Of a DNA stretch of 64,000 nucleotides, positions 4,318 to 62,916 are shown one piece after another. Where the stretch lies: sequence record OR999189.1. One strand, 5' to 3'. Source of the DNA: Enterobacteria phage P922. Position 1 is the stretch's first letter, and every line of letters starts with the position of its first letter. Under the pieces are notes generated by a model that did not search any database, was not told where the DNA came from, and saw only the letters and a list, made by a program, of their open reading frames with translations. Made by a program: the position numbers and the translations under genes.

Positions 4318-4951
4318 ACGCTTTTTTCATGGCCTCTGCGAGAGCCATATAGGCGTCATCGGCACTTGTATCGGCTTCCGCCGTCTGTGATTCGGTAATT
4401 TCCTTAGGAGTTACCCATGCATCTGGAGCACTTGGACCCCATACTGCATCAACACCTACAGTTAATTTGAATCCTTCGTTTACGATACGATAACCTTTAT
4501 TTGTGTCAGTCAATGAACCTAATCCACGAGAAGAAACTCCTGGAATCCATCCGGCACGAATATTAGCTGCTAATTTATCTCCAGGACCGTGGTCACCTTC
4601 AATAACACGAGCTCGTCCGTATACGTCATTTCCTTTCCACCACATATCTTCTATAATGATAGCGGCTTGCATCGGGTCAACATTAGCGCGTGGAGGATGA
4701 TTTAATTCTCCGAGAGCTTGTTTAGTTAAAACTTGCTCATTAATATAGTCTTTTACCGCTTTTTCTAATATGCGTTTTGGATAAAGACGTTTATTTCTAT
4801 TGACGACTTCTGCTTGCATGAATATTCCTTCGATGTATAAACCCGGTTTTAAACCTAAGTCTTTTCCATCGTGGGATTCAAGCATTGGCACACCATCAAT
4901 AATTTCGCCAGGTTGACCCCAAGTTTCAATTAGTAATTGGGGTTCATTCAT
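4313..4951 (-). CDS. 21: prohead protease gp21
   Basis: 212 aa; size and position between 68 and 22 match T4 gp21. Confidence 0.85.
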   Translation of the reverse strand: MNEPQLLIETWGQPGEIIDGVPMLESHDGKDLGLKPGLYIEGIFMQAEVVNRNKRLYPKRILEKAVKDYINEQVLTKQALGELNHPPRANVDPMQAAIIIEDMWWKGNDVYGRARVIEGDHGPGDKLAANIRAGWIPGVSSRGLGSLTDTNKGYRIVNEGFKLTVGVDAVWGPSAPDAWVTPKEITESQTAEADTSADDAYMALAEAMKKAL

Positions 4952-5376
4952 TAGCTTAATCCTAATGCTTTACGGCGTTTAAGAGCTTTTTTACGCTTAC
5001 GCTGAGCACGAGATTGACCTGCTGGATTGGCAATCTTCGTTTTGGTAGCTTTGCGAGCAATTTGTCTACGTTTTGCTTTAGACAGCCCAGTGGTTTGAAA
5101 TGCATTACGTTCGCGTGTTTTGCGGTCTTTAGTACGTGTAATTTCACCACGAGCTGAAACGTGCTTAACAATGAATTCATTTAACGGCATATTTTCATTA
5201 ATAGAAGCTAATGCAACTGCTAAATCAGTTTCATCATCAAGCATATTCTCGACAATTGTATTTATATCGTCTTTATTTAAAGCAGAAGACAATTCGTCAA
5301 AGCGACCCTGTGCTTCAGGAATAAGTGCTTCGACATTCTCGAGAACTAATTCATGAGTTTCAGGGATCAGAAGCAT
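4951..5376 (-). CDS. 68: prohead core protein gp68
   Basis: 141 aa, basic C-terminus; position between 67 and 21. Confidence 0.75.
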
Positions 5377-8536: not shown

Positions 8537-10516
8537 TTAACCTGCAAGACCAGTTAACTCATCGAAATCTGCACCAGTAGCAGTTGCGACGAAATTCAAA
8601 GTAATATAATTTATACTGCGCGCCGGTTGGATGTAGAATGTTGCAACAAACTCATTTCTATCAATTACTGACGGAGTGTTATTTGTTGTATCGCAAACTA
8701 CACGATATTCATAAATTCCACCGAGAGCTTTAATTCCCTGTAAGTATTGGGCAGTTTCTGTGCGGAATGATGAACGAGTAAACGCGTTGTTTAATTCGAA
8801 CAAACGATATTTTGAACTACGTCCGATATTCGTTTTCAACATATTAAACAGACGACGAACGTTAATACGATCAAATGGAGAAGGAACAGAAGTAGCTGTT
8901 TTATCACCATACAATACGTAACCATCACCACCTGTGCCAGTTACTGGGTTGATAGCTTCTTGGTATAAACGGTCGCGCTGAGCTTGGCGAGTTTCAATAG
9001 CAAGTTTAATAACGTTAAGAATCTGGCCGCGATTATAACCAGCTGGAGACATCCAAGTCTGAGAAACGTTATCGGTTCTTGCACATAAACCGGCAATATC
9101 AGCTGCTAATGGAACCCAGCGATTGACATCATTATATTTGTCATACTGATATTTGTAGTTACCATCAATTGCTGCGTAGGTTGAACTGATATTAAAGTTA
9201 TTATCAGTGTATGAACCTGTTGCAGTTCTCCAATTGACTAAGTTATCAACAGCGCGAGTTACAGGAATTCCAACTACAGTTTCGCGCGGTGGTGAGCACA
9301 ATACTAAGCAATCCTGGCGAGCATCCCCAATTGAAACGACGTGTTTTTGGACAGTAGATGCTGTTTCTAAAGATTCACCGGCACAAGAACCCGCAATAAA
9401 CAACTGAACGTCAACAGATTCACGGTCAGCAAAGAAGTCCCAGGCTTCCATTAAATCTCCTGCTGTTACTTCAGCATTTGATGATAATCCACCAGACAGA
9501 GTTAAAATTCCAGAGAATCCTTCTGGCCAGTTTTGTGCAGTTGCGAAAATATATTCTGAACCGCCTTTTGCGAAAAAGTCATCAATGTAGATGTTACTAT
9601 CGTAAATATCTTTTTCACCACGCTTTGTTGAAAGAACAATACTTTGAACAATAGCATCATTACGACGAACTATAATAGCGTATTGCGAATCAGTTTGTGG
9701 TCCATATCCAAAAACTGCCTTGGCAGTAGATGCGCGTGTTCCGCCACCTGGATAAATTGGAAGTAATGCAGAAGCACCTTTTGCGTAGTCAGCTTTAGAT
9801 ACGATTTCAATTTCGATTTTATCGCCCAACTCGCCCGGATAAAGAGCTACTACTCCTGGAATTCCATATTTTTCGAGATTTGCCTGAAAGTCAACCGCTG
9901 TCATAGCAGCTTCAGCATTTTCAATCTCAGCTAATAAAATACCGGAATCAGTAATAATTTTTCCAAGAGTTATTACTGCAGCTAAACCAGATGAAGACGA
10001 AGAAATTTCCGCGGTCCAGTTAGAACCTAATGCTGGATATTCACCGACTTCTTTCGCTTTAGCGATAATTTTTGCGGTAGGAATACTAATTTTCTTAATT
10101 TTTCCATCAGCATCTACTTCGGTAATTTTACCTTCCGTTTCAATGTCTTCTGAAACATACTTAACTGTGATTTTATCTCCAACCGCGTAGTTACTACCTG
10201 GAGTAGAAATAGTGTATTCAATATTACCAGCAATCGGAGATGAGTTTTTAGCGGTATCTCTATCGACAGCACGCACAACTCGCAAATCATTTCCATATTG
10301 TAAGAAATTCATTGCAGACATAAAATAGTCAGCAGTTTCAGCTGTAGGTTGACCAAAAGTATTAACTAAATCTACTTCATTTGTAACCTGTTTGATCTGA
10401 AAAGCAGGACCCCACTGGAATTTACCGGCCAAAGCTGCTGTACCAGTAGAGTTATTAACCACGGTGCTTTGAACCGTAGTTTCTTTGAGCTCAATGCCCG
10501 GAGATAATAAAGTCAT
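8537..10516 (-). CDS. 18: tail sheath protein gp18
   Basis: 659 aa, N-terminus MTLLSPGIELKETTV; length equals T4 gp18. Confidence 0.95.
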   Translation of the reverse strand: MTLLSPGIELKETTVQSTVVNNSTGTAALAGKFQWGPAFQIKQVTNEVDLVNTFGQPTAETADYFMSAMNFLQYGNDLRVVRAVDRDTAKNSSPIAGNIEYTISTPGSNYAVGDKITVKYVSEDIETEGKITEVDADGKIKKISIPTAKIIAKAKEVGEYPALGSNWTAEISSSSSGLAAVITLGKIITDSGILLAEIENAEAAMTAVDFQANLEKYGIPGVVALYPGELGDKIEIEIVSKADYAKGASALLPIYPGGGTRASTAKAVFGYGPQTDSQYAIIVRRNDAIVQSIVLSTKRGEKDIYDSNIYIDDFFAKGGSEYIFATAQNWPEGFSGILTLSGGLSSNAEVTAGDLMEAWDFFADRESVDVQLFIAGSCAGESLETASTVQKHVVSIGDARQDCLVLCSPPRETVVGIPVTRAVDNLVNWRTATGSYTDNNFNISSTYAAIDGNYKYQYDKYNDVNRWVPLAADIAGLCARTDNVSQTWMSPAGYNRGQILNVIKLAIETRQAQRDRLYQEAINPVTGTGGDGYVLYGDKTATSVPSPFDRINVRRLFNMLKTNIGRSSKYRLFELNNAFTRSSFRTETAQYLQGIKALGGIYEYRVVCDTTNNTPSVIDRNEFVATFYIQPARSINYITLNFVATATGADFDELTGLAG

Positions 10517-34507: not shown

Positions 34508-34537
34508 GTTTACACGTTGATGAGGTAGTGATACTAT
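34508..34537 (+). promoter_or_regulatory. early promoter (GTTTAC -35 / TGATACTAT extended -10) for ipI
   Basis: GTTTAC at 34508 and TACTAT at 34532, 18-bp spacer. Confidence 0.55.
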
Positions 34538-34567
34538 TACCTTATCAAAATTAATTAGGAAAATAAA

Positions 34568-34855
34568 ATGAAAACATTTAAAGAATTTACTTCTACAGCT
34601 ACCCCGGTTTCTACTATTACCGAAGCTACTCTTACTTCTGAAGTTATTAAAGCAAATAAAGGACGAGAAGGTAAACCAATGATTAGTCTGGTTGATGGCG
34701 AAGAAATCAAAGGTACTGTTTACTTAGGTGATGGGTGGTCTGCTAAAAAGGATGGTGCTACAATCGTTATCTCTCCTGCTGAAGAAACTGCGTTGTTTAA
34801 AGCTAAACACATTTCTGCGGCACATCTCAAGATTATTGCTAAAAATCTTTTGTAA
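34568..34855 (+). CDS. ipI: internal head protein I precursor (IPI-like)
   Basis: 95 aa; N-terminal leader MKTFKEFTS with an ITE cleavage motif; body ATLTSEVIKANKGREGKPMISLVDGEEIKG resembles T4 IPI* from memory. Confidence 0.65.
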   Translation: MKTFKEFTSTATPVSTITEATLTSEVIKANKGREGKPMISLVDGEEIKGTVYLGDGWSAKKDGATIVISPAEETALFKAKHISAAHLKIIAKNLL

Positions 34856-34873: not shown

Positions 34874-34903
34874 GTTTACATGGGGTTTTAGTTGTGATAC
34901 TAT
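34874..34903 (+). promoter_or_regulatory. early promoter for the second ip-like gene
   Basis: GTTTAC at 34874, TACTAT at 34898; -10/5'UTR identical to the ipI promoter. Confidence 0.55.
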
Positions 34904-34933: not shown

Positions 34934-35242
34934 ATGAAAACTTACCAAGAATTTATCAATGAAGCGGCTGCACCAAAGACATTCGTTATTAATACTCAAG
35001 CGAGTCTTGATGATGAGTACGCAGATGCAATTCTGAGGTCACTTGCTAAGAACGGCGTTGAAGTATCTGCATCGGACTTTAAGAAAGGGTCTTCCGAGAT
35101 GTTTATTTCTATAACTAAAGGATCTAAAGCTAAGATTAAATCATCATTCGGAGTTGCTCGTACCGATCAAATCGACAATCATGACTTTAAACAAACTGGT
35201 GCTAAACGGCATAATACGATTGCATCACGCGGAATAAAATAG
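34934..35242 (+). CDS. internal-protein-like protein with capsid targeting leader
   Basis: 102 aa; leader MKTYQEFINEA; identical promoter/5'UTR module to ipI. Confidence 0.65.
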   Translation: MKTYQEFINEAAAPKTFVINTQASLDDEYADAILRSLAKNGVEVSASDFKKGSSEMFISITKGSKAKIKSSFGVARTDQIDNHDFKQTGAKRHNTIASRGIK

Positions 35243-35253
35243 TTTATAAAACC

Positions 35254-35283
35254 GTTTACTTTTAGATAGGGTAGTGATACTAT
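35254..35283 (+). promoter_or_regulatory. early promoter
   Basis: GTTTAC at 35254, TGATACTAT around 35278; palindrome AGGGTA...TACCCT flanks the -10. Confidence 0.5.
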
Positions 35284-35311
35284 TACCCTATCAACTACTG
35301 AGGAGAATAAA

Positions 35312-35497
35312 ATGAAACGTTGTGAATTAATTCGAAATGTTGCTATTGCAATTTCTGCTTCCGCTTTTAGTTTTTCAATGTTTGTTGGATTTATATGTGG
35401 ATTATTGACTACAGCAGAAAATGTTTTTTCACTTGTAGTAGCATTTTTAATTGGTTTAATCGCTATTGTTATGGATAAAATTTCTAAAGGTGAATAA
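35312..35497 (+). CDS. small hydrophobic membrane protein
   Basis: 61 aa with two hydrophobic helices; preceded by an early promoter and GAGGAG RBS. Confidence 0.5.
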   Translation: MKRCELIRNVAIAISASAFSFSMFVGFICGLLTTAENVFSLVVAFLIGLIAIVMDKISKGE

Positions 35498-36289: not shown

Positions 36290-36362
36290 TGGGAATTAGC
36301 CAAGTTGGTAAGGCACTGGATTTTGATTCCAGGATGCAAAGGTTCGAGTCCTTTATTCCCAG
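36290..36362 (+). tRNA. tRNA-Gln (anticodon UUG)
   Basis: Hand-folded cloverleaf: acceptor TGGGAAT/ATTCCCA, anticodon loop ttTTGat, T-loop GGTTCGAGTCC. Confidence 0.8.
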
Positions 36363-36363
36363 C

Positions 36364-36450
36364 GCGAGAATGGTCAAATTGGTAAAGGCACAGCACTTAA
36401 AATGCTGCGGAATGATTTCCTTGTGGGTTCGAGTCCCACTTCTCGCACCA
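36364..36450 (+). tRNA. tRNA-Leu (anticodon UAA)
   Basis: Acceptor GCGAGAA/TTCTCGC, anticodon loop ctTAAaa, long variable arm, encoded CCA. Confidence 0.8.
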
Positions 36451-36455
36451 AATTT

Positions 36456-36529
<74 letters not shown>

Positions 36530-36539
36530 ATTTAATTTA

Positions 36540-36612
36540 CTCCGTGTAGCTAGTTTGGTAGAGCGCCTGATTTGGGATCAGGAGGTCCAAGGTTCAAATC
36601 CTTGTATGGAGA
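36540..36612 (+). tRNA. tRNA-Pro (anticodon UGG)
   Basis: Anticodon stem CCTGA/TCAGG with loop ttTGGga; T-arm CAAGGTTCAAATCCTTG; acceptor stem has two G-U pairs. Confidence 0.7.
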
Positions 36613-36614
36613 CT

Positions 36615-36704
36615 GGAGGCGTGGCAGAGTGGTTTAATGCACCGGTCTTGAAAACCGGCAGTCGCTCCGGCGACTCATAGGTTCAAATCCTATCGCCTCC
36701 GCCA
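36615..36704 (+). tRNA. tRNA-Ser (anticodon UGA)
   Basis: Acceptor GGAGGCG/CGCCTCC, anticodon loop ctTGAaa, long variable arm, encoded CCA. Confidence 0.8.
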
Positions 36705-36709
36705 GTTTT

Positions 36710-36785
36710 GCTGATTTAGCTCAGTAGGTAGAGCAACTCACTTGTAATGAGAAGGTCGGCGGTTCGATTCCGTTAATCAGCACCA
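36710..36785 (+). tRNA. tRNA-Thr (anticodon UGU)
   Basis: Acceptor GCTGATT/AATCAGC, D-arm GCTCAGTAGGTAGAGC, anticodon loop ctTGTaa, encoded CCA. Confidence 0.8.
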
Positions 36786-36786
36786 A

Positions 36787-36861
36787 GGCCCTGTAGCTGG
36801 AAGGTTCAAGCAAGCGACTCATAATCGCCAGATGGTGGTTCAATTCCACCCAGGGCCACCA
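36787..36861 (+). tRNA. tRNA-Ile/Met (anticodon CAU; probably the lysidine-modified Ile type)
   Basis: Acceptor GGCCCTG/CAGGGCC, anticodon loop ctCATaa, T-loop GGTTCAATTCC, encoded CCA. Confidence 0.7.
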
Positions 36862-36870
36862 AATTAATTT

Positions 36871-36957
36871 GGGGAGTTATCCCGTAGAGGTAGCGGTGTG
36901 GACTGTAAATCCATTGTCATTGCGACTCGGGTGGTTCGACTCCATCACTCCCCACCA
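36871..36957 (+). tRNA. tRNA-Tyr (anticodon GUA)
   Basis: Acceptor GGGGAGT/ACTCCCC, anticodon stem-loop GTGGA-ctGTAaa-TCCAT, long variable arm, encoded CCA; D-arm fold uncertain. Confidence 0.6.
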
Positions 36958-36961
36958 ATTT

Positions 36962-37036
36962 GGATGTGTAGCTCAATGGCAGAGCGATCGCCTGTTAAGC
37001 GATTGGTTATAGGTTCGAATCCTATCACGTCCGCCA
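36962..37036 (+). tRNA. tRNA-Asn (anticodon GUU)
   Basis: Acceptor GGATGTG/CACGTCC, D-arm GCTCAATGGCAGAGC, anticodon loop ctGTTaa, encoded CCA. Confidence 0.75.
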
Positions 37037-37040
37037 AATC

Positions 37041-37116
37041 CGAGGCATAGCTCAGAAGGAAGAGCAAGGACCTTCTAAGTCCTAGGTCGTAGGTTCGATC
37101 CCTACTGCCTCGACCA
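37041..37116 (+). tRNA. tRNA-Arg (anticodon UCU)
   Basis: Acceptor CGAGGCA/TGCCTCG, D-arm GCTCAGAAGGAAGAGC, anticodon loop ctTCTaa, T-loop GGTTCGATCC, encoded CCA. Confidence 0.75.
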
Positions 37117-38637: not shown

Positions 38638-38667
38638 GTTTACACCCTTGTCATTCCATGGTACTAT
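38638..38667 (+). promoter_or_regulatory. early promoter
   Basis: GTTTAC at 38638 and TGGTACTATACAACTATCAA at the -10 region. Confidence 0.5.
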
Positions 38668-38710
38668 ACAACTATCAACTACTGATACAGAAAACAACTT
38701 GGAGAATGAA

Positions 38711-38974: not shown

Positions 38975-39029
38975 GTTTACATAGGCTCATGATTGAGATA
39001 TTATGAGCCTATAATTTGAGGAAACTGTT

Positions 39030-42043: not shown

Positions 42044-42480
42044 AAACATTATCAGCTGGTATTATCTTTATGACAGAAGATAAAGATTTATTTATGGGTC
42101 GGGTTACTGGTTCTCGTAAGCCTGGAATGATGGCACATCGCTGGGATATTCCAAAGGGCCGTGTAGAAAATTCTGATTTAAGCGCATTAGATGCAGCACG
42201 AAGAGAATGTTTAGAAGAGACTGGTTTTAACAATTATAATCCAGATCTTCTAGAAGACCTAGGTGTATTTAAATATTCTAGTAATAAAGACCTACAGTTA
42301 TTTTATTATACGATTCCAGTAGAGCATGAGATGTTTAGAAATTGCTATTGCGAGTCTTATTTTGAAAATAAAGATGGCGTTATGATTCCAGAGATGGATG
42401 CTTTTGCTCTTATTCCTCGTACCCAGTGGCAATATGTGATGGGCCCTTCACTTTACCGAATAATGAACAGCCTCTTTTAA
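42025..42480 (+). CDS. nudE: Nudix hydrolase NudE (e.1)
   Basis: 151 aa; Nudix box RECLEETGF; directly upstream of lysozyme e as in T4. Alternative ATG at 42040. Confidence 0.75.
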   Translation: MQEIKMKTLSAGIIFMTEDKDLFMGRVTGSRKPGMMAHRWDIPKGRVENSDLSALDAARRECLEETGFNNYNPDLLEDLGVFKYSSNKDLQLFYYTIPVEHEMFRNCYCESYFENKDGVMIPEMDAFALIPRTQWQYVMGPSLYRIMNSLF

Positions 42481-43283
<803 letters not shown>

Positions 43284-43284
43284 T

Positions 43285-43314
43285 GTTTACTTCCTCCAAG
43301 GGTTTTGATACTAT
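43285..43314 (+). promoter_or_regulatory. early promoter for denV
   Basis: GTTTAC at 43285, TGATACTAT at about 43306..43314. Confidence 0.5.
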
Positions 43315-43341
43315 ACATTCATCAACTACTTGGAGGAAATT

Positions 43342-43767: not shown

Positions 43768-44022
43768 ATGTATCAAGAATTTATCGCTGAAGCAGATGCC
43801 AAAGGCCCCAAATTTAAAGTTAAAGCTTTCATTGGTGATGCCGAAGATTTTGGCTCATTAAAACGTAATGGGTATTCTTTCTCAGGCGGCAATGGTAAAG
43901 AAATAAACACCTATGCAAAACGTAGTGAAATTGCTTATGTTGTAGTAAGCCCTAAAGTAGATGTTGACGATATTGGATACGATTTTAACAACTTCGGAAT
44001 TATTTCTGGCGGTAAAGCTTAA
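43768..44022 (+). CDS. internal-protein-like protein with variant leader (MYQEFIAEA, lacks KT)
   Basis: 84 aa; leader matches the capsid targeting consensus except for loss of two codons after Met. Confidence 0.5.
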   Translation: MYQEFIAEADAKGPKFKVKAFIGDAEDFGSLKRNGYSFSGGNGKEINTYAKRSEIAYVVVSPKVDVDDIGYDFNNFGIISGGKA

Positions 44023-44025
44023 ACA

Positions 44026-44055
44026 GTTTACGCTTAAGTATTAATATGGTATAAT
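44026..44055 (+). promoter_or_regulatory. early promoter for the IPIII-like gene
   Basis: GTTTAC at 44026, TGGTATAAT at about 44047..44055. Confidence 0.5.
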
Positions 44056-44083
44056 TACTCTATCAAAACAAACAAGGAAACAC

Positions 44084-44659
44084 ATGAAAACGTATAAAGA
44101 ATTTATCGCTGAAGCTTCTGTGGAAAAGGCCAAAGGCATTAATAAAGATGAGTGGACTTACCGAGGAAATGGTTTTGACCCTAAAACAGCCCCTATTGAA
44201 CGATACTTAGCTACAAAAGCTTCCGACTTTAAAGCTTTCGCTTGGGAAGGACTTCGCTGGTGTACTGATCTAAATATTGAAGTTGATGGGCTTAAATTTG
44301 GCCATATTCAAGATGTTGTTGCTAGTAACTTGGACGCAGCTTTTGTTAAAGCTGACGGTGACCTTCGTCGCTGGAATTTAAAATTATTCTCTAAACAGAA
44401 AGGCCCAGTGTTTGTGCCTAAAGCTGGTAAATGGGTTATTGATAATAAATTAGCTAAGGCTGTCAACTTCGCCGGTCTTGAATTTGCCAAGCACAAATCG
44501 GCATGGAAAGGTCTTGATGCAATGGCTTTCCGTAAAGAATTCGCCGAGGTTATGACTAAAGGCGGCTTTAAGGCAGAACTAGATACCTCTAAAGGTACGT
44601 TTAAAGACGCTAATGTTCAGTATGCTTACGCCGTTGCTAATGCAGCCCGTGGTAATTAA
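44084..44659 (+). CDS. internal head protein III-like
   Basis: 191 aa; leader MKTYKEFIAEA; size close to T4 IPIII (about 194 aa). Confidence 0.6.
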   Translation: MKTYKEFIAEASVEKAKGINKDEWTYRGNGFDPKTAPIERYLATKASDFKAFAWEGLRWCTDLNIEVDGLKFGHIQDVVASNLDAAFVKADGDLRRWNLKLFSKQKGPVFVPKAGKWVIDNKLAKAVNFAGLEFAKHKSAWKGLDAMAFRKEFAEVMTKGGFKAELDTSKGTFKDANVQYAYAVANAARGN

Positions 44660-46836: not shown

Positions 46837-46866
46837 GTTTACTTTTCCTCTTGACTGTGGTATAAT
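46837..46866 (+). promoter_or_regulatory. early promoter for regB
   Basis: GTTTAC at 46837, TGGTATAAT ending at 46866. Confidence 0.5.
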
Positions 46867-46893
46867 TTTTCTATCAGTTAAGAGGAGAATAAC

Positions 46894-50800: not shown

Positions 50801-50824
50801 AGTCTCCTTCGGGAGACTTTTTTC
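50801..50824 (+). terminator. rho-independent terminator
   Basis: Hairpin AGTCTCC-ttcg-GGAGACT followed by TTTTTT. Confidence 0.7.
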
Positions 50825-50833
50825 ATTTTACCG

Positions 50834-50863
50834 GTTTACTTTCCATTTGAGCTGTGATACTAT
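50834..50863 (+). promoter_or_regulatory. early promoter
   Basis: GTTTAC at 50834, TGATACTAT ending at 50863; directly after the terminator. Confidence 0.5.
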
Positions 50864-51645: not shown

Positions 51646-51675
51646 GTTTACAAGTTGGCAAGGTTATGGTATAGT
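51646..51675 (+). promoter_or_regulatory. early promoter
   Basis: GTTTAC at 51646, TGGTATAGT ending at 51675. Confidence 0.45.
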
Positions 51676-51810
51676 AATCTTGTCAACTGCTAAGGAGAAG
51701 AGAATGAAAGTTTTGTTTGTTGTGTATGTGATGATTCAATATAATTACCCAATGTTTACTTATAATCTGGTGAACAACATTATTGATATTATTCAAAGGA
51801 GTATGTAATT

Positions 51811-54370: not shown

Positions 54371-54372
54371 TA

Positions 54373-54396
54373 GGGAGCCTTCGGGCTCCCTTTTTT
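54373..54396 (+). terminator. rho-independent terminator
   Basis: Hairpin GGGAGCC-ttcg-GGCTCCC followed by TTTTTT. Confidence 0.7.
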
Positions 54397-54420
54397 ATTT
54401 CAAAAATTTTTCACAAAATT

Positions 54421-54450
54421 GTTTACAAGCATAAAGCTTTATGGTACTAT
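54421..54450 (+). promoter_or_regulatory. early promoter
   Basis: GTTTAC at 54421, TGGTACTATACAACTATCAA at the -10 region; directly after the NTase terminator. Confidence 0.5.
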
Positions 54451-54487
54451 ACAACTATCAAAACAAACACTTAAACGGAAAAACAAA

Positions 54488-54637
54488 ATGAAAATTACAC
54501 CAATTGAAGTAAAAAAGTTGATTGACACAGAAGAAATTTCAGAGTGTTTTGAAAGTTTCTTAGAAGATGCAACTGAAGATAATGCAGTTTATCTCGCTCA
54601 GAAAATTATCGAAACTTATTTGGAGAAGAATCAATGA
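54488..54637 (+). CDS. hypothetical small acidic protein
   Basis: Track ORF starts upstream inside the promoter; first ATG (MKITPIEVKK) gives 49 aa. Confidence 0.4.
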   Translation: MKITPIEVKKLIDTEEISECFESFLEDATEDNAVYLAQKIIETYLEKNQ

Positions 54638-54897
54638 CAGTTTACGTAGATGTTTTAATGAATCATGGATGGAAACTTCGCGGTCATCCAACTAAAAATT
54701 GTCATATGTTCACTGATGGAGATATTGAAGAGCTTCATGAAATGGCAGAAGCAATAGGAATGAAACGTTCTTGGTTTCAAGATAAACGCATTAAACATTA
54801 TGACTTACACGCTCGGCGACGCCAAAAAGCTATAGAACTTGGCGCCGTAGAAGTATCTCGTCGCGAAGCAGTAAAAATTTGGCAAACATTAAAATAA
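54634..54897 (+). CDS. hypothetical protein
   Basis: 87-aa ORF with ATGA overlap with the upstream gene. Confidence 0.45.
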   Translation: MTVYVDVLMNHGWKLRGHPTKNCHMFTDGDIEELHEMAEAIGMKRSWFQDKRIKHYDLHARRRQKAIELGAVEVSRREAVKIWQTLK

Positions 54898-54900
54898 ATT

Positions 54901-54930
54901 GTTTACAGCAGGGTAGTAGTGTGATACTAT
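54901..54930 (+). promoter_or_regulatory. early promoter for the AAA+ ATPase gene
   Basis: GTTTAC at 54901, TGATACTAT ending at 54930; palindrome GGGTA...TACCC flanks the -10. Confidence 0.5.
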
Positions 54931-54966
54931 TACCCTATCAAAACAAATGTAAAATTGGAGAATAAA

Positions 54967-56341: not shown

Positions 56342-56371
56342 GTTTACAAGACTGTTCCTCTGTGGTACTAT
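56342..56371 (+). promoter_or_regulatory. early promoter
   Basis: GTTTAC at 56342, TGGTACTATACAACTATCAA at the -10 region. Confidence 0.5.
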
Positions 56372-56399
56372 ACAACTATCAACTACGGAGGAACACAAA

Positions 56400-59325: not shown

Positions 59326-59354
59326 TTTACTTTGCCACAAGGATGTGGTATAAT
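59325..59354 (+). promoter_or_regulatory. early promoter inside the four-paralog cluster (before paralog C)
   Basis: GTTTAC at 59325, TGGTATAAT ending at 59354. Confidence 0.5.
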
Positions 59355-62793: not shown

Positions 62794-62916
62794 AACCTTG
62801 GTGGGCGGCTAGATGGGAAACAGTAGAGCCAGAGCCGGAAGAACCGGTTTACACTGATGAAGAAACAGTATATAATGAACCTACGATAAATGACTTAATT
62901 GATATGGAGATGGGAC

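Follow-up and report, generated by a model that had tools for sequence, protein, structure and literature searches.

Early promoters of Enterobacteria phage P922 (sequence record OR999189.1) carry inverted repeats across their -10 elements, and what is conserved in these repeats is the pairing of the two arms, not a recognition sequence for a protein. We analyzed a 64,000-nt stretch of this genome (the window; all coordinates refer to this one strand, 5' to 3'), in which a first-pass annotation had singled out three promoters (34522..34545, 35266..35292 and 54913..54940) with a -10 element embraced by the palindrome AGGGTA...TACCCT and followed by ATCAA. The arms pair in excess of chance, compensatory changes preserve the pairing in related phages, both arms fit into the geometry of an early promoter, and repeats and upstream terminators tend to exclude one another. 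We lean towards a reading in which the palindrome is the stem of a selected RNA stem-loop that lies over the early promoter and insulates cistrons in polycistronic early RNA. The stem-loop structure and its evolution are well supported; that the stems act as RNA, and what they do to that RNA, we infer.

The region around the palindromes is 95-98.5% identical to T4-like coliphages (Tequatrovirus), with Shigella phage CT01 and Escherichia phage EcNP1 as the best matches. From ~31 kb on, early genes are encoded on the + strand of the window, which corresponds to the minus strand of the T4 record. All three promoters lie on this strand and display the elements of T4-type early promoters: GTTTAC(A/T), a 17-bp spacing from TTTAC(A/T), TGn and TAnnnT, together with an A/T-rich upstream region and a Shine-Dalgarno sequence and ATG shortly 3'. 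Each is laid out as GTTTAC, N15 and then TGATACTAT. The pattern GTTTAC-N14-20-TACTAT was found nine times on the + strand of the window, where 0.07 occurrences are expected. The first promoter (34508..34537, + strand; -35 GTTTAC at 34508-34513, TGA at 34529-34531, -10 TACTAT at 34532-34537) precedes ipI (open reading frame (ORF) 34568..34855), the second (35254..35283, + strand) a trna.4 homologue (ORF 35312..35497) and the third (54901..54930, + strand) an nrdC.10 homologue. Their T4 counterparts are located at 73939 (ipI), 73572 (trna.4) and 146143, the last being the frd.2 promoter, to which promoter 54901 is nearly identical. The ATCAA motif follows the -10 at all three promoters, as annotated, although it does not mark a subfamily: the same spacing is seen in 9 of 15 early promoters in the window, and the motif is thus a general early-promoter feature. 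It coincides with the start-site (+1) region, and from sigma-70 geometry transcription should start ~7 nt after the -10, at the A of ATCAA.

Inverted repeats around the -10 are present at all three promoters, and fold z scores and promoter counts exclude chance as their origin. At 35266..35292 (ATAGGGTAgtgatactatTACCCTATC) a perfect repeat of 8-9 bp with the arms (G)ATAGGGTA and TACCCTAT(C) surrounds TGATACTAT. As RNA, this sequence folds into a 12-bp hairpin with an AUAC loop (GATAGGGTAGTG / TATTACCCTATC, 35265..35292, + strand) of -16.4 kcal/mol and a z score of -4.8 against dinucleotide shuffles, which were used for all z scores; the antisense strand yields -12.2 kcal/mol. The predicted start site of this promoter (A at ~35290) falls within the 3' arm. 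We refer to hairpins of this kind, in which the right arm starts 0-4 nt after the -10 and the -10 itself lies in the loop or stem top, as class A. The ipI promoter has the arms TTGATGAGGTA/TACCTTATCAA (11 bp including one G.T), the core of which is AGGTA/TACCT and not the annotated AGGGTA/TACCCT. Its class A hairpin (34517..34548, + strand) is formed by TTGATGAGGTAGTG / TATTACCTTATCAA and comprises 14 bp, three of them G.U, with an AUAC loop (-15.9 kcal/mol, z -5.9; antisense -7.7). AGGGTA/TACCCT does occur at 35254 and at 54901. At the latter, the left arm AGGGTA is placed at 54910-54915, five bases further from the -10, and a start at 54913 therefore clips it. The resulting stem (AGGGTAGTAGTG / TACTATTACCCT, 54910..54936, + strand) has 12 bp, a UGA loop and the -10 hexamer within the stem (-15.2 kcal/mol, z -3.8). 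All three stems reach into GUGAUACUAU via G.U pairs, and their sense RNA is 4-11 kcal/mol more stable than the antisense RNA. When the 15-nt spacer was scored for complementarity to the 40 nt after the -10 and compared with shuffles, promoters 34508 and 35254 reached p<=0.002 and promoter 54901 p=0.048.

Loss of the repeat from orthologous promoters would have spoken against the original proposal. We found it retained in T4, T2, Mosigvirus and more distant T4-like contigs. In promoters of the internal-protein (IP) type that have the identical leader ATCAAAATTAATTAGGAAAATAAAATG, the left arm TGATGAGGTA faces TACCTCATCA in T4, giving perfect pairing, TACCTTATCAA in the window (G.U) and TATCTCATCA in T2 (G.U), while a Mosigvirus promoter with the same leader carries TGATAGGACT/AGTCCTATCA. 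The hairpin at 35265..35292 has the variants GATGGGGTA (G.U) and TAGATAGGGTA/TACCCTATCTA in other phages. Promoters of the 38975 type show ATAGGCTC/GAGCCTAT in the window and T4, ATGGGCTC/GAGCCCAT in two database stretches (L004, L008), ATAGGCTC/GAGCCTGT with a U.G intermediate in L015, and ACAGGCTC/GAGCCTGT in L009 and L150 (OL960580). Compensated arms were also found in the 54901 promoter family: GGGTT/AACCC, GGGCT/AGCCC, GGTCT/AGACC, AGGCT/AGCCT and AGGGTA/TACCCT. In an ungapped alignment of 78 TGATAYTAT promoters, with 500 shuffles per test, 57.7% of the cells in the class A register are paired compared to 51.0% after shuffling (0/500), and 93 cells are changed on both sides compared to 53 (0/500). 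The covariation score of this register amounts to 0.26; shuffles gave 0.18 (0/500) and slid registers 0.07-0.19. Relatedness among the sequences means that these values are not independent of one another, yet they all point the same way. Pairing of alignment columns 10-21 with 25-36, a fixed alternative register, was not significant over all 78 promoters, because this register is confined to a subfamily, and analysis of that subfamily shows compensated pairs there. Pairing is kept while the arms change, which removes the basis for a sequence-specific operator. As a separate observation, Klebsiella T4-like phages match the window solely at 35271-35343, with ~94% identity; this block contains the -10, the right arm, the leader and the first trna.4 codons and is conserved far beyond its flanks.

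The repeats are a general feature of these promoters. In the window, 7 of 16 early promoters show spacer-to-downstream complementarity at p<=0.002. The early strand of T4 has 38 promoter-like sites, 13 of which reach p<=0.01; among 400 random sites with matching geometry, 1.5% attain this level. A set of 180 unique T4-like promoters was compiled from three sources (the window, T4 and IMG/VR contigs); the IMG/VR pattern scan gave at least 120 stretches, and a scan with the trna.3-homologue protein yielded mainly distant relatives. Among these 180 promoters, 32 have an ungapped helix score >=8 compared to 1.45 expected from shuffles, although the comparison sequences are related to one another and the counts are not independent events. 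The arms of different promoters in one genome are unrelated, as illustrated by ATAGGGTA, TTGATGAGGTA, ATAGGCTCATGAT (38981), AGTTGGCAAGGTTAT (51653), TTCCTCCAAG (43291), TTTTCCTCTTGACTG (46843) and TGTTCCTCTG (56353). They range from 5 to 15 bp, with loops of 3 to ~30 nt and a variable register: pairing registers (left plus right alignment column) of 45, 46 and 51 were seen, besides right arms on the Shine-Dalgarno sequence. These last, about a third of the cases, we term class B; here the right arm is located ~15 nt further on. Some promoters of distant relatives (stretches L017 and L027) have both helices nested. Within the promoter core and leader, constraint is lowest in the spacer and in the bases that follow the -10. 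The first-pass annotation had pointed to conservation beyond the needs of sigma-70 and to a hairpin as one possible object of it. Both points stand.

The feature is not limited to IP loci and also occurs at regB, denV, dmd, cd.3, mobD.2 and nrdC.8. A class A hairpin with the architecture of the three focal stems and another arm sequence lies across early promoter 38975 (ATAGGCTCATGAT / ATTATGAGCCTAT, 38981..39012, + strand; -18.0 kcal/mol, z -6.7). Another, of 15 bp with two G.U, spans early promoter 51646 of the mobD.2 homologue (51653..51688, + strand; -19.0 kcal/mol, z -7.8; antisense -7.6), and the T4 stem is perfectly Watson-Crick paired. Class B hairpins are found on the + strand at the denV early promoter (43285), where the spacer TTCCTCCAAG pairs with the Shine-Dalgarno sequence CTTGGAGGAA (43291..43338; -19.1 kcal/mol, z -5.1), and at the regB early promoter (46837), where TTTTCCTCTTGACTG / CAGTTAAGAGGAGAA form 15 bp with two G.U that cover the Shine-Dalgarno sequence (46843..46889; -21.6 kcal/mol, z -6.0; identical in T4 at 62797). 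A third covers the Shine-Dalgarno sequence behind the promoter of the nrdC.8 homologue (56342) by means of TGTTCCTCTG / CGGAGGAACA (56353..56395; -20.2 kcal/mol, z -6.4). The second subfamily of the first-pass annotation, at 38659, 54442 and 56363, is also real: the 20-mer TGGTACTATACAACTATCAA is present exactly at 38659..38678, 54442-54461 and 56363-56382 on the + strand as a sequence-conserved cassette of promoter and leader. Promoters 38638 and 54421 of this subfamily have no repeat embracing the -10.

Several observations favor RNA as the pairing molecule: the bias towards G.T mismatches, the stability of the sense strand, the targeting of Shine-Dalgarno sequences and the exclusion of terminators. 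Interior mismatches on the sense strand comprise 20 G.T and 7 A.C, compared to 58:63 in the shuffled null, and single-step variants among orthologues nearly all form G.U. Without masking, folding favors sense over antisense by 50 to 15, a strand test on which we relied weakly. Repeats are very rare at promoters with an intrinsic terminator <=90 nt upstream: 1 of 19 such promoters has one, compared to 37 of 107 promoters that lack the terminator (Fisher p=0.012). In T4, nrdC.10 has a terminator and a promoter without repeat, whereas in the window a two-ORF insertion parts nrdC.10 from that upstream terminator and its promoter, 54901, bears a repeat. In the window, 0-12 nt separate the -35 of each repeat-bearing promoter from the end of the preceding ORF, compared to 37-166 nt at terminator-preceded promoters. 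This leaves the promoter core and its short leader as the sole untranslated RNA in which a structure could form between the cistrons. The predicted start site lies between the arms or within the 3' arm, i.e. inside the 3' arm in class A, with the left arm located upstream in every case. A promoter's own transcript consequently lacks the 5' arm and cannot fold, which confines the hairpin to read-through RNA. At the class B promoters of denV, regB and the nrdC.8 homologue, the segment from Shine-Dalgarno to AUG is predicted to be unpaired with a probability of 0.56-0.63 in the own transcript, which drops to 0.18-0.31 in the read-through RNA.

We propose the following mechanism. The 5' arm would be supplied by the promoter spacer (~-30 to -14), and the 3' arm by the discriminator and first transcribed bases (~-6 to +5) in class A or by the Shine-Dalgarno sequence in class B. 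With the -10 in the loop or stem top, a polymerase of the own promoter would start inside the class A 3' arm, and the hairpin would form solely in RNA read through from upstream promoters. There it may mark and insulate the border between cistrons, whether the polycistronic RNA is early, middle or late. Class B would mask translation, in that the gene would be translated from its own immediate-early transcript and stay silent on read-through RNA. Class A may stand in for the terminator stem-loop of terminator-plus-promoter cassettes; by analogy, it would be a barrier to intercistronic decay or a punctuation mark for processing. It may block 3'-exonucleolytic decay of the upstream cistron, or keep a 5'-end-dependent attack by RNase E/G from spreading downstream. 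Such decay could begin, for example, after cuts by RegB, the consensus of which is found behind promoters 35254 and 54901: the Shine-Dalgarno regions at 35301-35311 and 54955-54965 are full matches to the RegB/S1 cleavage consensus GGAGAAUAAAA known from T4 (PMC1702504).

Some of our results weigh against this reading. At the three focal class A sites, the segment from Shine-Dalgarno to AUG has a predicted unpaired probability of 0.62-0.63 in the read-through RNA compared to 0.60-0.85 in the own transcript, so that no masking is predicted. This unchanged accessibility does not support class A as a mask of the ribosome-binding site, and its effect is argued by analogy. When the extended -10 was forced to be unpaired, sense and antisense folding scored 25 vs 25, an excess solely with respect to a composition null of 27% sense-better, so that the strand evidence for class A is moderate, not decisive, and built on modest counts. 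Several promoters without an upstream terminator have no repeat (39532, 44026 and 59325), and pairing is weak at the T4 trna.4 promoter and at promoter 34874 of the window (34874..34903, + strand), the early promoter of an extra IP gene (34934..35242). The latter has the right arm and leader of the ipI promoter and a spacer of a different type; its right arm TACCTT finds a weak left partner (ATGGGGT/ACCTTAT, two G.U, p=0.52). In addition, part of the compensation could stem from recombination of promoter cassettes or from templated correction of quasi-palindromes.

The main rival explanation, which we consider unlikely, is that the hairpin acts as an attenuator or terminator and co-transcriptionally pauses or stops incoming polymerases, so that each cassette opens with its own 'stop'. 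Exclusion with canonical upstream terminators would then reflect functional redundancy. The depositors of OL960580, using WebGeSTer and TransTermHP, indeed annotated the same stems as rho-independent terminators: those at 4609-4657, 4975-5021 and 9576-9621 overlap the annotated early promoters of ipI, trna.4 and e.7. Furthermore, the stem-loops of promoter-early stem-loop cassettes (PeSLs) have been shown to terminate transcription (PMC2839356). However, our stems are AU-rich, contain G.U pairs and have no U-tract. No U-run follows the focal stems at 34548, 35292 and 54936, the downstream sequences being ...TACCCTATCAACTACTGAGG and ...TACCCTATCAAAACAAATG; the GC-rich hairpin with an immediate U-tract that defines an intrinsic terminator is found at none of the three, and a terminator scan of the window did not list them. 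Class B hairpins close after the Shine-Dalgarno sequence with loops of 25-30 nt, a poor geometry for termination, and delayed-early expression in T4 depends on read-through (PMC2988021).

We regard it as improbable that the repeats have no function, being inherited with duplicated cassettes and kept or perfected by templated quasi-palindrome mutation. Many of the promoters are paralogous cassettes and some lack any repeat. T4 is also the classic system for quasi-palindrome correction. On the other hand, unrelated arm sequences arose at many promoters, with a 20-fold excess over shuffles, and neither the G.U bias nor the targeting of Shine-Dalgarno sequences nor the exclusion of terminators is expected from mutation bias alone.

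A DNA hairpin or cruciform that promotes recombination of promoter cassettes, as the first-pass annotation suggested, or that tunes melting with supercoiling, appears quite improbable to us. Promoters do lie at indel junctions, as seen for the extra IP gene, for the insertion ahead of nrdC.10 and, in T4, for the trna.4 promoter; recombination at such cassettes has been proposed in the PeSL literature (PMC4122927, PMC2839356), and according to the T4 record, the 14 nt that form the loop of the cd.3 promoter repeat were at one time published in inverted orientation. Folded as DNA, however, the hairpins are weak (about -5.8 to -6.9 kcal/mol, with loops of ~10 nt), and imperfect arms leave A.C mismatches on the other strand that are poorly suited to cruciform extrusion. 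Homology of the -35, -10 and leader shared between promoters suffices to explain recombination, and a DNA structure predicts neither right arms on Shine-Dalgarno sequences nor terminator exclusion. The inverted loop belongs to positions 133300..133313 of the T4 record, a 14-nt segment noted there as the inverted complement of an earlier published sequence. It coincides exactly with the loop (the extended -10) that the arms GGTAGAG/CTCTACC enclose at the cd.3 early promoter, and the discrepancy reflects either a loop inverted between its arms or an error of the early sequencing. The T4 trna.4 promoter (73572) combines the spacer of window promoter 34874 with the downstream part of window promoter 35254, a composition as expected from recombinational deletion across the shared TGATACTAT.

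The operator for a phage or host regulator proposed in the first-pass annotation, here taken to bind a dimeric protein that represses early promoters, for example as an early shut-off factor, is highly improbable: dyad symmetry centred on the -10 is the classic operator geometry, as in LexA/lambda-type operators and the CRP site, AGGGTA/TACCCT recurs at 35254, 54901 and T4 146143, and early shut-off in T4 is unexplained (PMC2988021, PMC3014915), but arms are wholly different among the promoters of one genome, arm length, loop and register vary, orthologues alter both arms while the leader stays identical, G.T mismatches are tolerated and exceed A.C, neither a conserved half-site nor a fixed half-site spacing exists across promoters, and repeats are missing from promoters behind terminators, whose presence is irrelevant to a promoter repressor. 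A single shared operator is ruled out, as arms differ within a genome and co-vary between genomes. The T4 ipII and ipIII promoters (65799 and 66498 of the T4 record, minus strand) contain AATTGTGA...TCACAATT around the -10, and this TGTGA-N8-TCACA, counted in favor of an operator, resembles a CRP site of the 8-bp-spacer class; the ipII repeat is perfect over 14 bp. TGTGA-N6-8-TCACA was not found in the window and occurs solely in these two T4 promoters.

The read-through stem-loop that we favor has its closest relatives in the promoter-embedded translational hairpins of the T4 genes e, soc, 49 and I-TevI (McPheeters 1986, reviewed in PMC3014915), of which the gene e hairpin has been experimentally validated (PMC3014915). 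In both cases the 5' arm lies upstream of the start of an internal promoter, and folding is hence restricted to read-through RNA. Our positive control, the gene e (lysozyme) hairpin in the window (42478-42525, with two late promoters, TATAAATA, inside), yielded -16.2 kcal/mol and z -4.6, compared to -19 to -22 kcal/mol for class B. As in these systems, the class B 3' arm sequesters the Shine-Dalgarno sequence, with masking predicted at 43285, 46837 and 56342. In contrast, the three focal class A stems end 5-20 nt before the Shine-Dalgarno sequence and should not mask it by the same prediction. Moreover, the embedded promoter is late in the known cases and an early sigma-70 promoter here, which reverses the temporal logic.

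The first-pass annotation had recommended a comparison with PeSLs. These consist of a GC-rich, terminating stem-loop with a U-run upstream of an AT-rich region and promoter (PMC2839356, PMC4122927). The composite of early promoter and stem-loop is shared, as is the location in hyperplastic regions of T4-like genomes near indels; association with indel or replacement junctions, a PeSL trait along with mini-circles, was seen at the focal promoters. However, the focal stems straddle the -10, being made of spacer and post-(-10) bases, have no U-run, are not effective terminators by their sequence and are found where an upstream terminator is absent. Because PeSL stem-loops precede their promoter and do terminate transcription, the three focal sites, which are members of the T4 early-promoter family, do not fall under the PeSL definition. 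The PeSL layout is present in the window only at 50801/50834 and 54372/54421. In the latter unit (54372..54450, + strand) early promoter 54421, which has no hairpin embedded in it, comes after the intrinsic terminator AGGGAGCCTTCGGGCTCCCT and its T-run (54372-54398); the former (50801-50863) is laid out alike. Compared to T4, the interval between nrdC.11 and nrdC.10 has gained two small ORFs (54488..54637 and 54634..54897), with the terminator-preceded promoter 54421 on one side and promoter 54901 on the other.

Weaker, AT-rich stem-loops of variable size have been described in the promoter/leader blocks of IP loci (Repoila 1994, as summarised in PMC2839356), and going by that summary a partial prior description of our stems is possible. 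Promoters 34508 and 34874 likewise precede IP genes, with the common leader ATCAAAATTAATTAGGAAAATAAAATGAAAAC and an N-terminal MKT(F/Y)(K/Q)EF motif at the gene starts, although the stems reported here extend beyond IP loci. REP elements, as in malE-malF, are intercistronic stabiliser hairpins. They resemble class A as stable stem-loops in an untranslated gap of a polycistronic mRNA without terminator activity; the stems studied here differ in that they belong to no repeated sequence family and lie on a functional promoter, and any stabilising effect would be putative. In the searchable literature we found no report of early promoters with stems that straddle the -10, nor any on the covariation of such stems or on terminator exclusion; a search for T4 data sets of 3' ends or long-read transcripts likewise found none.

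Tentatively, the finding can be extended to T4-type early promoters at large. About one third of them may be dual-coded, with 40-55 bp serving both as a strong sigma-70 promoter at the DNA level and as a selected stem-loop in the read-through RNA, and together with the terminator cassettes they might form a genome-wide system of cistron insulation. Such a system would set which genes are expressed from their own immediate-early promoter alone and which also from delayed-early, middle or late read-through, and would contribute to the abrupt end of early protein synthesis. The fate of a message would depend on the promoter it originates from, which would offer a simple way of passing, post-transcriptionally, from immediate-early to later patterns of expression. 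T4 early promoters hold conserved information beyond the sigma-70 elements, the meaning of which is unclear (PMC2988021); part of this 'extra consensus' would be explained if spacer and start-site bases are constrained by RNA structure. Since spacer mutations also break the hairpin, promoter mutagenesis and comparisons of promoter strength in T4 would then need re-reading. A phage with almost no intergenic space would be stacking DNA and RNA signals on the same bases, which would be relevant for the annotation of T4-like genomes, where such stems are labelled terminators, and for T4 promoters in synthetic constructs.

Further differences between the window and T4 concern IP and tRNA genes. The IP gene at 34934..35242 (MKTYQEFINEA...) is extra in the window compared to T4, and IP-like ORFs at 43004-43283 and 43768-44659 are arranged unlike T4: one (MKTYSEF...) overlaps the stop of e and replaces ipIII/ipII, and two (MYQEFIAEA... 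and MKTYKEFIAEA...) follow denV, the last behind the repeat-less early promoter 44026. The tRNA cluster (36290-37113) comprises ten tRNA genes, compared to eight annotated in T4; an Rfam 15 scan of the window at gathering score returned these 10 tRNAs and no other RNA family. Finally, the spacer and extended -10 of promoter 59325 contain a short hairpin (GCCACA-agga-TGTGGT, 59333-59350). It also occurs at T4 50973 and 2458, the motif ccacaaggatgTGGTATAAT being common to three T4 promoters, and represents a different mode of pairing promoter bases.

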